Below, piece by piece: positions 14,194 to 63,645 of a stretch of DNA of 64,000 bases. Origin of the DNA: Candidatus Falkowbacteria bacterium (lineage in GTDB: Bacteria > Patescibacteriota > Patescibacteriia > UBA11705 > JABHMO01); contig JABHAL010000004.1 of NCBI GenBank assembly GCA_018674305.1, forward strand, positions 192,446 through 256,445, in the 5' to 3' direction. Positions within the stretch are counted from its first letter, which is position 1; each line of letters begins with the position of its first letter. The notes under the pieces were generated by a model, which had not been told where the DNA came from, did not search any database, and saw only the letters and a program-made list of their open reading frames with translations. A program made the translations under genes and the position numbers.

Positions 14194-14222
14194 ATTGACA
14201 AAAGTTAAAAAGTGTGCTATAA
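14194..14222 (+). promoter_or_regulatory. Consensus promoter TTGACA-N17-TATAAT
   Basis: ttgaca 14194-14199; tataat 14217-14222. Confidence 0.6.
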
Positions 14223-14253
14223 TTATAAGATTAATTTAACAATGGAGGCCATC

Positions 14254-18440: not shown

Positions 18441-18478
18441 TTGTCAATATTGACAAATTTGTAAAATTGGTATATAAT
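18441..18478 (+). promoter_or_regulatory. Consensus promoter TTGACA-N17-TATAAT overlapping a perfect 16-bp palindrome TTGTCAATATTGACAA
   Basis: ttgaca 18450-18455, tataat 18473-18478. The palindrome probably represents back-to-back -35 boxes for divergent tig and 18511 promoters. Confidence 0.55.
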
Positions 18479-22219: not shown

Positions 22220-22747
22220 TCAACGTTGAGGAAAATTATTTTTGAGGTAGTTTTTCCAATCCTTGGAAAATTTGATAAAAAGCGCCGTGCATACGACAAA
22301 GGTGAGCTCAAGTGTTAATCCCGGAAGGAAAAGAGCGGGGTCATGATCAAAGGCGTTGTAAGCCATGATCCAGACTGGGATATTGAGGATTGATAAAACG
22401 AGGAAGACAATTGCCCAGCGGTTGTTTTTTTTAATAGCAGCCCTTGCTCCAGTTTCACAAAACTCATTTATTCCTTGTGAATGAATTAGTACTGCTTCTT
22501 CTAGTGAAGTAGTTTGTCTTTGTTCAATCACGAAACTCTCCCTTTGTTGACTAGTGACATTTGTTTTACCTTGACTTTCTATATCAGGTACATCGGGATT
22601 TAGCATCTTCTGGCAATTATCTACAAACTGTTTCATTGATCTGTCGTTGAACTCTCTATACCTTTGGCTTTGTGTCTTTCCACTTTTCATGAACTCCTCC
22701 ATTCGTTGACTATGGATGATTATAGCATGACAAGATGGCATTGTCAA
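22220..22747 (-). CDS. Hypothetical protein with C-terminal TM helices
   Basis: 175 aa; no recognisable domain. Confidence 0.45.
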   Translation of the reverse strand: MTMPSCHAIIIHSQRMEEFMKSGKTQSQRYREFNDRSMKQFVDNCQKMLNPDVPDIESQGKTNVTSQQRESFVIEQRQTTSLEEAVLIHSQGINEFCETGARAAIKKNNRWAIVFLVLSILNIPVWIMAYNAFDHDPALFLPGLTLELTFVVCTALFIKFSKDWKNYLKNNFPQR

Positions 22748-49994: not shown

Positions 49995-52457
49995 CTAGTA
50001 AATTTCATCAGCATTGGACTTCTGAGTTTTCTTTGTTTTTGGTTCTTCTATTTCATCATTTGCTTCATCTTCAAAGTCCTCGTCCAATTCGTCTTCATCA
50101 AATTCACCCTCCTCCGATAAATCCTCGGAGGACAGATTATCTTCTTCCTCATTCTCATCATCTTCTAATTCTTCATCATCTGCACTTTCGTTTTCGACTT
50201 CATCTTCAAACTCCTCATCAGCGGAGTCGTCTTCTTCATATTCATCTTCGTCTTCAATATCATCTTCTTGACTTGAAAATGGAGTAACCTCAGAGCTCAC
50301 TGCAACTTCTTCTTGGTCACCAAAAACTTGTCGTGGCTTGGCGCCATCGGCTGGACCAACAATACCTGAATCTTCTAACATATCAATTAAACGAGCTGCT
50401 CTTGCATAGCCAATACGTAATCTTCTTTGTAAATAAGATGCAGAGGCTTTACCTGATTCAAGAATCAAATGTTTAGCTTCGTCAAATAGTTCATCTCCAT
50501 CATTGCCACCTGCACCCTTGAAATCAAAACTGGTGCTGCTGCCACTATTTGGTTTTTCAGTCACTGCATCATGATAATCAGCTTCTCCTCCACAAGCATT
50601 TTTCAAGAAATTAACTACTCGTTTAATTTCTTCATCACTAACAAAAGCACCTTGCAATCTTATTGGCTTTGCGGTTTGTGGAGTCATGAATAGCAGGTCT
50701 CCTTTTCCAACTAGTTTTTCAGCACCTGAAGAATCAAGTATGGTACGTGAATCCATCAAGGAGGCAACACTGAAGGCAATACGACATGGAATGTTAGCTT
50801 TAATTAATCCAGTAATAACGTCAACTGATGGTCTTTGTGTGGCAACTACCATATGAATGCCAACAGCTCTTGCCATTTGTGTTAAACGGATAATACAACC
50901 TTCTACTTCAGCTGCCGCTGCAACCATTAGATCGGCCAACTCATCTATAATAATAACAATGTAAGGCATTTTTTCTTTGGAAGATAGATTGTAGGATCCA
51001 ATATTACGTTTTTTTACTTTAGCTAATATGTCAAAACGCCTATCCATTTCACTAATAGCCCAACGTAAAGAATAAACAGTTTTGGTTACATCTGTAATAA
51101 CTGGAGTTAGTAGATGGGGAATCCCATTATATACTGGAAACTCAACTCTTTTTGGATCAACCAGAATCAAGCGGAGCATGTCTGGATTGTTTTGATATAG
51201 TAAACTCATTATTATTGCATTTAAACAAACACTTTTTCCAGACCCGGTTGCACCCGCAACCAGTAGGTGAGGCATGCTAGTTATATCATCGATCAGGCAT
51301 TTTCCACTTACGTCTTTTCCGAGAACAATCGATAAATTTGTTTTACGATTTTTAAAAGATCTTGATTGTAGAACTTCTCGGATTCTGACAACAGCTGGCT
51401 TTTGGTTTGGCACTTCAATACCAACCAAAGATTTCCCTGGGATTGGTGCTTCTATACGAATAGGGTGAGCTGCTAGTGCCAAAGCTAAATCATTGCTCAA
51501 AGTTGTAATGCGAGAAAGCTTTATGCCCTCTGCTGGTTTTAGTGTGTATTGTGTAACGGTTGGTCCGACTTGCACTGTGTCCATTTCTACCGGAATATTG
51601 AAATTTTCTAAAGTCTTGGAAATTCGTTCAGTCCCAGCTTTGATGTCGCCACTTGTTGGTTTTGATTTACGGTCATCAAGTAGTTTCATTGGTAAATCAA
51701 TTTTGATATTTGTTGAACGAATACCTGCGGGTGTGGCTGTTTTATCACGGTTAGTTAAACTTTGAGCGGTTACCTTTACATCACTAACTTTTGTTGGTGC
51801 AATTTCTTCTTCGTACTCATCTTCTTCGTCTTCGTATTCATCCTCATCCTCTTCCTCGTCTTCATATTCATCTTCGTCATCTGTTTCGTCTCTATTTGAC
51901 TTTCTACCTAGCATAGCTGGGATTTGTTTGAAGATGTTTGATTTTTCGAACAAATTTTCTAGACTTGTATTAAACATTAATAAAATACTGGCCAGCAAAA
52001 GTCCTACTAAAATAAGTAGCCCGGCCCAAAAGCCTAAATATAGTACTAACGGGTAACTAATTGCATACCCAATGATACCACCACCAAGTCCACTAAAAGA
52101 TAATTCAAAAGAGTTAACAAAAGGGACTTTGAGATGTAGGAGACCATGGATACTTAGAAAAAATATACCAATGCCAGTGTAATTTGAAATGGTAACTTGA
52201 TGTTCGTTTGGTTTTGCTAGTGCGTACCCTAGGCCAATTAAAATTAGGGGAAATATAAAGCGACCCCAACCAAGGGTAATACCCAAGGCCCAATCAATAT
52301 AGACTCCAGCCTTACCAGCTAAATCTAAAAAACTTAAAATGCAAATTATGGCAATAATAAAAAGGAATATAATAATAATTCCCTTTTTAGTTTCTGGACT
52401 TAAGTTATAGTACTCAACCTCTTGATAACGTTTTGATTTTTTTCTTCGTTTAGCCAT
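49995..52457 (-). CDS. ftsK: DNA translocase FtsK
   Basis: Four N-terminal TM helices, acidic linker, motor domain GATGSGKS, gamma domain (SYLQRRLRIGYARAARLIDMLE), D/E-rich C-terminal tail. Confidence 0.9.
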   Translation of the reverse strand: MAKRRKKSKRYQEVEYYNLSPETKKGIIIIFLFIIAIICILSFLDLAGKAGVYIDWALGITLGWGRFIFPLILIGLGYALAKPNEHQVTISNYTGIGIFFLSIHGLLHLKVPFVNSFELSFSGLGGGIIGYAISYPLVLYLGFWAGLLILVGLLLASILLMFNTSLENLFEKSNIFKQIPAMLGRKSNRDETDDEDEYEDEEEDEDEYEDEEDEYEEEIAPTKVSDVKVTAQSLTNRDKTATPAGIRSTNIKIDLPMKLLDDRKSKPTSGDIKAGTERISKTLENFNIPVEMDTVQVGPTVTQYTLKPAEGIKLSRITTLSNDLALALAAHPIRIEAPIPGKSLVGIEVPNQKPAVVRIREVLQSRSFKNRKTNLSIVLGKDVSGKCLIDDITSMPHLLVAGATGSGKSVCLNAIIMSLLYQNNPDMLRLILVDPKRVEFPVYNGIPHLLTPVITDVTKTVYSLRWAISEMDRRFDILAKVKKRNIGSYNLSSKEKMPYIVIIIDELADLMVAAAAEVEGCIIRLTQMARAVGIHMVVATQRPSVDVITGLIKANIPCRIAFSVASLMDSRTILDSSGAEKLVGKGDLLFMTPQTAKPIRLQGAFVSDEEIKRVVNFLKNACGGEADYHDAVTEKPNSGSSTSFDFKGAGGNDGDELFDEAKHLILESGKASASYLQRRLRIGYARAARLIDMLEDSGIVGPADGAKPRQVFGDQEEVAVSSEVTPFSSQEDDIEDEDEYEEDDSADEEFEDEVENESADDEELEDDENEEEDNLSSEDLSEEGEFDEDELDEDFEDEANDEIEEPKTKKTQKSNADEIY

Positions 52458-52704
52458 TTGTTTATATTAGAATCTAAGGGCAAAAGTTTTGATTTGGCCC
52501 TATATTCTTTATTTTTATGTTTGTTTCTATAAGCTATTTTATCATATACAGCTGTAGATGTACAGCATGAACAATTACCAATTACTCAAATAATAAGTAT
52601 CAATTAAATCCAAATTTGCAAATTACAATTTCTAAAGTTATTTTGAGTTTTGAAAATTTATATTTGTAGTTTAATTGGAACTTGTGGCATTGATCAATTG
52701 ATCA

Positions 52705-53171
52705 TTTAAAAATAAAGGAGGACAGCTCACACGGAGCTGCCCCCTTCATATAATTTGGGAAATTGGAGGGAACTTCCCAAAAGAGCAGACAAATTTCACA
52801 ACGAAATTATAAAAAGATCAATTTATGGTGTTGTGAAAAGAGGAGAGAGATCCCTCCAGGGCTTGTCTACTCATTTGAAAAGTTCACTTAAGAGAATTTA
52901 ACTTCCAGAAAAATGATGAGGGGGGGCGTACGAGCTCTTATATAAGTTTGTAGCCCAGCCTCTCTCCCCATCAATTTTCTGAAAGTTAATTATCAGCAAA
53001 ATGATGTAGAGGAAATTGGAACAGTTGAGCAATAAATGAATAATTCTCATTTGTCCAATAGTTGATGATAGAGATGGGCCAGCTTAATCGAGGTTAATCA
53101 ATTTAGCTAGCGACCATCTACTTTCTCTCTCCTCGTACATCATTCTACAGATAAATTATTAAGTATGTTAA
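52705..53171 (-). ncRNA. Candidate large structured non-coding RNA (~470 nt), identity unknown
   Basis: Perfect minus-strand promoter (TTGACA at rc 53201-53206, N17, TATAAT at rc 53178-53183); GC-rich terminator hairpin at 52715-52746 followed on minus by TATTTTT; several long-range helices; no ORF with a start codon in between. Confidence 0.4.
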
Positions 53172-53425
53172 TGGGACATTATAGCACATATTTAATATTT
53201 TGTCAATAGGTTCTGGCGGTTATAATGATATTTAGCTAAAATTAGAGTAATGCTCGCGTTAGTAATATATAATAAAGGTAGTTTTTGACTTGACAATTAA
53301 AATGAAATATAATATAGTTGATTATCAGTTCAAAGTTTATAAAGTAAAAAGTTCATAAAGTCGATCAAGTTGATTACAGTAAATGTTTATTGTTATCTCC
53401 TTTCTCCCCTTTATCCCATATAAAT

Positions 53426-63222: not shown

Positions 63223-63645
63223 ATTGTATAACTGCTACTCCTGAAGAAACATTTGGCAAGAGGGTCTGTTGTTGAATACTTGTCCGACAGCAGGCCCTTA
63301 TAGAAACACAAAACTAGAAGTCCGTTTTTCGGGGCTTTTTTAGCAAAAGTCCAGTTTTTGAAGAAGTAATTAAATTCATGTTTTTATATTTCTAATTGTC
63401 CTAAAATTAGGACAACGAAGAAAGAAAGTAAGTTTAATCTTGTTCAACCAAATGCGCTTTTTCAAGAGATAGCAATCAATTTATTATTTCTTAATTGTAC
63501 ATACATTATAGCAAGGATTTCAAGGTTTGTCAATGTGTAAAAAGAGGCTTAATTTAGTTGTTGACATTTTGTTTTTTATGGCTTATTCTATAGTATTGGC
63601 TAAAAAGTGAATTTGTATTTAGTTTTTTCAACAATGAGGAGTGCT

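Follow-up and report, generated by a model that had tools for sequence, protein, structure and literature searches.

The gap between clpP and ftsK in a metagenome-assembled genome (MAG) of a Candidatus Falkowbacteria bacterium carries, on its minus strand, what is very probably an RNA gene: its product would be a structured, stand-alone non-coding RNA (ncRNA) that belongs to no described family and is conserved in Candidatus Falkowbacteria-like Patescibacteria. The gene lies in a stretch of 64,000 nucleotides (nt) of contig JABHAL010000004.1 (assembly GCA_018674305.1), which is called the window throughout and whose numbering is used for all positions unless a locus is named. The predicted primary transcript is non-coding and about 465 nt long (52708..53172, minus strand), as judged from the depth of its fold, the limits of its conservation and the lack of a conserved open reading frame (ORF). 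An undescribed large structured ncRNA had been suspected here when the letters alone were inspected (hereafter the sequence-only reading), and the suspicion is supported by the absence of a match to known families, by a conserved unit that extends from promoter to terminator and by helices that covary.

The unit opens with a sigma-70 promoter, TTGACA-N17-TATAAT, which has a TG-extended -10 element (53178..53206, minus strand). All 12 consensus positions match, as had been stated before, and the TG extension comes in addition; from the position of this promoter, transcription is predicted to start near 53172. Five perfect TTGACA-N17-TATAAT sites occur in the 64-kb window against 0.03 expected, and this is therefore a real promoter type of the organism. 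At the other end lies an intrinsic terminator (52708..52747, minus strand) that is found in the homologues as well, a hairpin with the conserved loop CCGUGUGA followed by a U run. Its stem (52744..52718) has 11 pairs, seven of them G-C, and a loop of 5 nt, and is followed by CTTTATTTTT; the GC-rich hairpin and T run described in the sequence-only reading were recovered, with the stem counted as 11 pairs and not the 12 given there. The G+C content is 0.38 inside the unit and 0.23-0.29 in the flanks, so that the interior is indeed the richer part. Elsewhere in the window, the other four perfect promoters lie at 14195-14223 and 18450-18478 on the plus strand and at 22719-22747 and 63505-63533 on the minus strand, three of them with TGn before the -10 element. 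The one at 14195 precedes an ordinary protein gene, a 153-amino-acid (aa) ORF with a GGAGG ribosome-binding site, and those at 18450, 22719 and 63505 could mark further highly expressed genes or RNAs.

Homologues were drawn from the contigs of close FtsK relatives and from a motif scan of metagenome contigs. Besides the window copy they amount to 13 further distinct versions, 11 complete and two partial (L102 and L094; loci are given such numbers where they must be told apart), from genomes in which FtsK, as far as it is known, shares 55-77% identity with that of the window. The metagenome scan returned 22 loci, 8 of them true matches and the rest chance matches in unrelated or coding DNA, and added L092, L094, L099/L111, L102 and L110. 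The order clpP-gap-ftsK is found in nearly all close FtsK relatives, with a gap of 650-1100 bp where a homologue is recognisable. Each of the 11 complete homologues has the pattern TTGACA-N17-TAnAnT at the corresponding position, and partial L102 has it too; a hairpin with a T run marks the 3' end of the same 11 and of partial L094. In a four-way alignment of whole gaps, from the window and three relatives, identity to the window is 0.44-0.82 between promoter and terminator, drops to 0.26-0.42 directly after the terminator and is 0.35-0.48 more than about 100 nt upstream of the promoter. The conserved stretch begins near the promoter and ends at the terminator, and the length of the RNA varies from 414 to 829 nt across versions. 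It is absent from L088, an FtsK relative at 61% identity. A ClpP-based scan of genomes in GTDB gave 80 loci, the top one 77% identical and most of them from other phyla, in which nhmmer detected no RNA with either the first or the improved profiles; this absence says little about the wider distribution of the RNA. Among 2.9 million viral contigs, two motif patterns found no homologue, with three chance coding matches for one and no matches for the other.

The sequence-only reading had seen no ORF with a start codon in the unit, which was wrong: a 50-aa ATG ORF with a hydrophobic stretch (52898..53050, minus strand) and a 28-aa TTG ORF are present. Neither of them is conserved in any homologue. 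When the 12 complete versions, with that of the window among them, are compared for ORFs of 25 aa or more, each version has ORFs of its own, which differ in where they lie, in frame, in strand and in sequence. A conserved coding frame in related genomes had been named as one of three results that would speak against the sequence-only reading, assignment to a common family being another; the frame was looked for, and none is present in the homologues. It is barely conceivable that the locus instead encodes a small protein, is a pseudogene, or is a mobile element or a palindromic repeat. The 50-aa ORF with its hydrophobic stretch, the short ORFs that gene callers place on the homologues and the long inverted repeats would suit such an origin, but the ORFs change in every homologue, and the element has one copy in the window and one per locus, at the syntenic clpP/ftsK site, with no dispersed copies as in miniature inverted-repeat transposable elements (MITE) or repetitive extragenic palindromic (REP) sequences. 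Moreover, compensatory changes with G-U pairs, together with the conserved promoter and terminator, indicate selection on a transcript of one strand. Public gene calls include short ORFs of 82 and 36 aa that lie on the RNA or on the strand opposite it (L087 4327-4575 and L090 3492-3602, both minus strand) and a 31-aa ORF beside it that overlaps the ftsK start (L083 4945-5040, plus strand). The calls on the RNA are probably spurious, their ORFs not being conserved.

A cis-acting leader or attenuator of the ftsK-rodZ-like-recA operon, with the terminator as the regulated element, would be expected where this RNA is found, oriented like ftsK, immediately before that gene in 12 of 13 homologues, and with a terminator at its end. 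This possibility is nevertheless highly improbable. The 50-250 nt after the terminator hold a separate conserved extended -10 promoter of ftsK, TATG(C/A)TAAAAT (52536-52564, minus strand), shortly before the start codon; the element is found also in L083, L086, L087, L088, L090, L092, L094, L099 and L114-L116, and so in most relatives, with L117 among the exceptions, and is present in L088 although the RNA is absent there. In L110 the gene downstream of the RNA encodes a DEAD/DEAH helicase instead of FtsK. Immediately past the terminator, conservation is at background; no alternative fold to the terminator came to light, and no riboswitch or T-box family matches. The RNA is not a leader of ftsK.

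Searches against known families, which had been proposed along with the sequence-only reading, assigned the RNA to none of them. For the window copy, cmscan against Rfam 15 (4227 families) gave nothing at gathering thresholds and, at E<=10, only hairpin look-alikes far below threshold; these low-scoring matches are chance hairpins, such as MIR8008 (32 bits against a gathering score of 66) and MicC. The 11 homologue loci gave no gathering-level match, and the version L090, which has three modules (see below), gave only sub-threshold chance matches at E<=10. OLE, GOLLD, ROOL, HEARO, raiA and the other large ncRNAs of Rfam were without a gathering-level match in the window and the 11 homologue loci alike, and the models of RNase P RNA (RNaseP_bact_a/b), transfer-messenger RNA (tmRNA), 6S RNA and signal recognition particle (SRP) RNA found no match. 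ARAGORN reported three tRNAs and no tmRNA in the window. The RNase P motifs CR-I (GAGGAAAGUCC) and CR-V (ACAGAAnnCGGCUUA) are absent from all homologues even with 2-3 mismatches allowed, and regular expressions for the tmRNA T-arm and for SRP motifs found nothing in any homologue apart from one weak chance T-arm match. P4 motifs of RNase P RNA and tRNA-like ends of tmRNA had not been found by eye, and cmscan, ARAGORN and the motif checks were negative as well. Literature searches did not turn up this RNA, nor any lineage-specific ncRNA described in Patescibacteria. A likeness of AGAGAGGCU to a PyrR-binding site was dropped as unsupported, there being no Rfam match to PyrR.

It is scarcely credible that this is a very divergent housekeeping RNA (RNase P RNA, tmRNA, 6S or SRP RNA) which has escaped the models. 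The size would fit RNase P RNA or tmRNA, the promoter is a strong one and the genome small, the beginning of the RNase P CR-I motif GAGGAAAG is similar to GAGGAGAG, and neither RNase P RNA nor tmRNA is found elsewhere in the 64-kb window. Against this stand the lack of a covariance-model match at E<=10 in the window copy and L090 and the negative motif and ARAGORN results. The 3' end is a terminator and not tRNA-like, and the RNA is built of serial hairpins, with a module number of 1-3, and not in the nested P1-P4 topology.

Fold and modular build of the RNA

Folded as a whole, the 468-nt stretch of the window has a minimum free energy (MFE) of -173.2 kcal/mol, while dinucleotide shuffles of it reach -102 +/- 5.8 (z = -12.3), and z lies between -10 and -15 in all 11 complete homologues. 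The modelled architecture is a series of rod-like hairpin domains: module M1, the Mid hairpin, domain C, hairpin D and the terminator. Within these domains, support for the hairpins P2, P3 and C2 and for the Mid hairpin comes from folds of single sequences; the MAFFT alignment is unreliable inside P2, P3 and C2.

Module M1 (52992..53152, minus strand) is a predicted three-way junction. Its helix P1, of about 25 bp, joins a 5' strand at 53130-53152 to a 3' strand at 52992-53013, and the hairpins P2 (53071-53121) and P3 (53016-53058) are linked by the junction strand J2/3, UAUCAUCAACUA (53059-53070), all on the minus strand. When folded alone, 17 of 17 modules from 13 homologues take this common P1/P2/P3 shape. 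Their layout comprises P1 (AUGAUG/CAUCAU, GAGGA/UCCUC), a GAGAGA junction, a variable P2, a linker and P3 with a large AU-rich loop that ends in UAUUGCCC. In the MAFFT alignment of 16 modules, 15 of the 25 pairs of P1 are changed on both sides and 89.8% of cells are paired, against 36-60% for slid partners; the covariation of 0.379, compared with 0.061-0.121 after sliding, is reached by 0 of 500 shuffles. G-U pairs are frequent in P1 and in helix C1 of domain C, and since these would be A-C mismatches on the other strand, the RNA is read from the minus strand. The test of covariation across related genomes suggested with the sequence-only reading was thus positive for the long helices P1 and C1.

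M1 can be repeated: nine complete versions have one copy of it, and the other two have three in tandem. The three tandem modules of L090 and L099 are distinct from each other, and each is conserved between both genomes. The RNAs with three M1-type modules (L090/L091 and L099/L111) are 806-829 nt long (L090 2948-3794; L099 790-1658, the same as L111 3199-4067), and some P2 hairpins of L090/L099 bear GGUUCAAGGACC or a UUCG loop. This modular, repeat-like build had escaped the sequence-only reading, as had the non-conserved ORFs. In several modules a start codon follows a tract that resembles a Shine-Dalgarno (SD) sequence; on reading the sequences, this arrangement was rejected as a coding signal, being neither conserved nor associated with a shared peptide.

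The Mid hairpin (52898..52989, minus strand) has a 24-bp stem, the arms of which (52898-52921 and 52966-52989; inverted repeat I1) are 24 nt long and 88% complementary. Its internal loop contains a degenerate purine tract, GGGGAGAGAGG (52959-52969), and its apex the conserved element GGCUGGGCU...AGCUCGUACGCC. Over 24 nt, the 3' strand of its stem shares 79% identity with that of the M1 stem (direct repeat D1), which makes M1 and Mid paralogues. The same long hairpin was folded in 10 of the 11 versions examined, in L099 being read within a longer fold, and is shorter in L110.

Domain C (52776..52879, minus strand) is predicted from the covariation of helix C1, from RNAalifold and from the folds of hairpin C2. 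C1 (52863-52879 with 52776-52792, minus strand) encloses an internal loop; C2, with the conserved loop UUGAUCUUUU, lies at 52794-52838 on the same strand. When the two anchored strands are joined, C1 has 17 pairs and 95.6% of cells paired, slid controls pairing at 48% or less; six of the 17 pairs are changed on both sides, as in the replacement of AAA/UUU by AUU/AAU in L090 and L099. From an independent alignment, RNAalifold again predicts C1 and the terminator; compensation is seen in 19 of the 31 pairs, and the terminator receives 12 pairs, most of them with compensatory changes. C2 forms in 12 of 12 sequences despite their differing stem sequences, and all 12 C domains fold alike alone. The complementarity of TTTCACAAC with GTTGTGAAA (52794-52802 with 52830-52838) had been listed before, one of three long-range complementarities that were all found again, the other two being the 24-nt arms of the Mid hairpin (88%) and the 11-nt tracts discussed below (100%). 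A pairing of the C2 loop (UUGAU/UUGUU) with J2/3 (AUCAA/AACAA) is suggestive, in sequences that are of low complexity. Pairing of the 5' leader with the region before domain C was considered and rejected, since on inspection it is not conserved.

Hairpin D (52757..52778, minus strand; inverted repeat I5) consists of GGGAAGUU...AAUUUCCC with the loop UCCCUCCA. A hairpin at this position is apparent in most homologues and unclear in L083 and L116, and the CCCUCC loop is found in four homologues only. The loop portion UUCCCUCCA complements UGGAGGGAUCU just 5' of the pyrimidine tract (52764-52774 with 52848-52858, minus strand; I6). This sequence pair, CCCUCC with GGAGGG, occurs also in L092 and L110 and in no other homologue, and might form a lineage-specific pseudoknot.

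The long helices also invite the view that the transcript is a precursor: the closing helices of M1, Mid and domain C, of 17-25 bp, would be RNase III sites at which it is cut into separate stable hairpin RNAs. Three consecutive domains are indeed each closed by a long, nearly perfect helix, and z values of -10 to -15 lie below those that compact ribozymes or riboswitches usually reach. The inner helix AUGAUG/CAUCAU is conserved though paired, and the modules of L090 and L099 differ mutually while each is kept between genomes. We consider a precursor distinctly unlikely, however, because the helices contain mismatches and G-U pairs, the unit has a single promoter and a single terminator, and the two complementary tracts belong to separate domains, a sign that these domains act jointly. 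It would also be compatible with the scaffold reading set out below and not exclusive of it.

Proposed tract pairing and mode of action

The reading that we favour as a whole, with a probability of roughly 0.6, is that of a stand-alone ncRNA acting in trans as a scaffold organised by the pairing of two tracts. The purine tract GAGGAGAGAGA (53124..53134, minus strand) supplies GAGGA to the inner end of P1 and GAGAGA to the junction strand J1/2. The pyrimidine tract UCUCUCUCCUC (52840..52850, minus strand) lies in the internal loop of domain C and is exactly complementary to the purine tract of M1, GAGGAGAGAGA and TCTCTCTCCTC being complementary over 11 nt at 100% (53124-53134 with 52840-52850; I4). 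The purine tract is near-invariant in 17 M1-type modules (with L114 included and partial L102 left out); its changes are A-to-G opposite U in three modules, one compensated replacement of G-C by A-U (L117) and one G-to-U (L114). The core CUCUCC of the pyrimidine tract is invariant in 12 sequences, and the tract is unpaired in the MFE folds of L090, L099 and L094; it is predicted to be single-stranded wherever it has no local partner. Aligned with each other, the tracts pair in 96.8% of cells and show one compensated change. A long-range helix of the two tracts is plausible and compatible with these data.

According to this reading, the RNA would probably act in trans as a stable scaffold, either RNA-only or protein-bound. 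Somewhat more tentatively, at less than even odds, the purine tract of a module may pair with the single pyrimidine tract of domain C, and such pairing would either hold the 3' domain docked in the junction of the same molecule or join one molecule to another. GAGGA might alternatively pair with its own UCCUC, and a conformational switch would then be possible. In the three-module versions, one pyrimidine tract is not enough for all the purine tracts, and the modules would therefore probably be repeated binding units for a further partner, which may be another RNA copy or a protein. The scaffold mechanism is inferred by analogy with the RNA-RNA contacts of OLE, ROOL and GOLLD (PMC12286853).

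Several observations weigh against this interpretation. The tracts vary too little, and 104 of 500 shuffles equal the observed pairing score; being of (AG)n/(CU)n composition, they still pair at 76-83% after a slide by 2. A U-to-G change in the pyrimidine tract of L090 breaks one pair, and the G-to-U of L114 is uncompensated. Moreover, GAGGA is predicted to pair with the module's own UCCUC in 16 of 16 aligned modules, and the full 11-bp long-range helix and a complete P1 are therefore mutually exclusive. The sample is small and narrow (13 homologues, one lineage), the gene neighbourhood is ordinary synteny that points to no partner, and transcription, RNA ends and abundance are all deduced from sequence.

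The same tracts could serve a sequestering or regulatory RNA, an alternative that we hold to be unlikely. In that case the GAGGAGAGAGA units, which contain the SD core AGGAG and GGA, would titrate a protein or the anti-SD tail of 16S rRNA, and purine-rich ribosome-binding sites of mRNAs would be bound by base pairing to the CU-rich tract and to the CCCUCC loop, in the manner of CsrB/RsmZ or the C-rich small RNAs (sRNAs) of Gram-positive bacteria. Such a role would agree with a copy number of the purine-tract module that varies from 1 to 3, plus a degenerate copy, with tracts that are invariant in sequence rather than covarying, with the exposure of the CU-rich tract in an internal loop and with the CCCUCC loop in hairpin D of four homologues. 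It agrees less well with the position of GAGGA within helix P1 and not in a hairpin loop, and with a number of sites (1-4) far below that of CsrB. As for targets in trans, the only extra match to either tract in the window lies inside the rodZ-like gene, and none is near a start codon. SD sequences also seem to be little used in the genome: GGAG, GAGG or AGGA occurs at -20..-4 in 12 of 57 long window ORFs by a crude count, and clpP and ftsK (starts 53426 and 52457) are both without one. The use of SD-led initiation by this lineage may thus be slight, which bears on any SD/anti-SD reading of the tracts.

A bolder extension of the trans scaffold, which we regard as rather doubtful, is that of a new self-assembling or switchable RNA class specific to ultra-small Patescibacteria. 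Intermolecular pairing of the tracts would build an RNA-only or ribonucleoprotein (RNP) superstructure, or would gate SD-like/anti-SD-like sequences. If this were true, reduced genomes would gain from an RNA a function that other bacteria obtain from proteins.

The surrounding locus

The ftsK gene occupies 49995..52457 on the minus strand, and its product is 100% identical to an NCBI protein from Candidatus Falkowbacteria. For clpP, the start is most likely ATG 53426 rather than TTG 53390, because the 190-aa product alone is on record (contig JABJLN010000023.1, GCA_018703365.1). The gap between ftsK and clpP is therefore 968 bp, a correction of the 930 bp given in the sequence-only reading. 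Around the RNA gene lie ordinary housekeeping genes, which offer no hint of its function.

On the clpP side of the gap, a polypyrimidine run, TCTCCTTTCTCCCC, lies in the putative 5' untranslated region (UTR) of clpP just before its start codon (53395-53410, plus strand); it is seen in the window only and is absent in L083 and L087. Direct GTCAA repeats stand on the clpP-promoter side, TTGTCAAGTCAAAAA at about 53285-53305 in the window and GGTCAAAAGTCAAAA at 4300-4320 in L083, and may resemble a CtsR-type operator. A 120-aa protein with the Pfam domain 23S_rRNA_IVP is encoded a few kb from the RNA in L081 (16500-16862, the window neighbourhood) and in L086 (1148-1510), the L086 copy also matching bAvd. 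As regards a link to diversity-generating retroelements, no reverse transcriptase was seen in the loci examined.

Comparison with known RNAs and significance

Patescibacteria (Candidate Phyla Radiation) have genomes of about 1 Mb and have shed most non-essential sequence. In such a setting, an RNA of 414-829 nt that has a consensus promoter, and whose structure has clearly been kept by selection between genomes with FtsK identities as low as 55%, is probably not superfluous. Large bacterial ncRNAs with unassigned function are few, and this family is a new member of that group. Its rods, its repeatable three-way-junction unit and its invariant 11-nt tract with an exact complement offer handles for experiments. 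The locus also shows that gene callers place ORFs here that are probably spurious.

Some features recall RNAs of well-defined function. The packaging RNA (pRNA) of phi29-type phages likewise has a unit of about 120-170 nt, in which a long helix closes a three-way junction that bears two hairpins, and pRNAs multimerise by loop-loop pairing. However, pRNA is a phage RNA of the packaging motor, whereas the RNA described here is chromosomal and syntenic, with no phage genes nearby, no sequence similarity to pRNA and no homologue found by the two motif patterns in the 2.9 million viral contigs. RNase P RNA is of similar length, and the long-range pairing of the GAGGA strand would recall its P4 helix, but its universal motifs and a covariance-model match are absent here, the helix topology is another one and the end is a terminator hairpin. 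With 6S RNA it shares the character of a housekeeping-style RNA (strong expression being predicted here) that is dominated by long imperfect double-stranded rods. 6S RNA forms just one rod, some 180 nt long and with a central bubble, whereas here there are three to five rods, a three-way junction and a variable number of modules, and no Rfam match to 6S at E<=10.

The resemblance to CsrB/RsmZ lies in a repeated short purine motif bearing GGA, in a variable number of units and in a stand-alone, presumably abundant RNA with a terminator. The motif, however, is 11 nt long, is placed in a helix end and a junction instead of hairpin loops, occurs in 1-4 copies and has an exact internal complement, and the units themselves are three-way junctions of 160 nt.

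Parallels also exist with OLE, GOLLD and ROOL, RNAs of several hundred nt that are restricted to certain lineages, have a gene of their own and combine many conserved helices with conserved unpaired sequences, and whose function, like that of the present RNA, could not be deduced from context. The RNA of the clpP/ftsK gap differs from them in having no match, in sequence or structure, to their Rfam models, in its host lineage, Patescibacteria, in the absence of associated protein genes such as oapA and of a phage or mobile-element context, and in its form, a chain of long rods with a repeatable module instead of one compact multi-junction fold. Several large bacterial ncRNAs have been found to adopt unexpected quaternary structures, and cryo-EM showed that OLE, GOLLD and ROOL form homo-oligomers via RNA-RNA contacts (PMC12286853). 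By analogy, the complementary tracts of the RNA described here would allow an oligomer mechanism of the same type.

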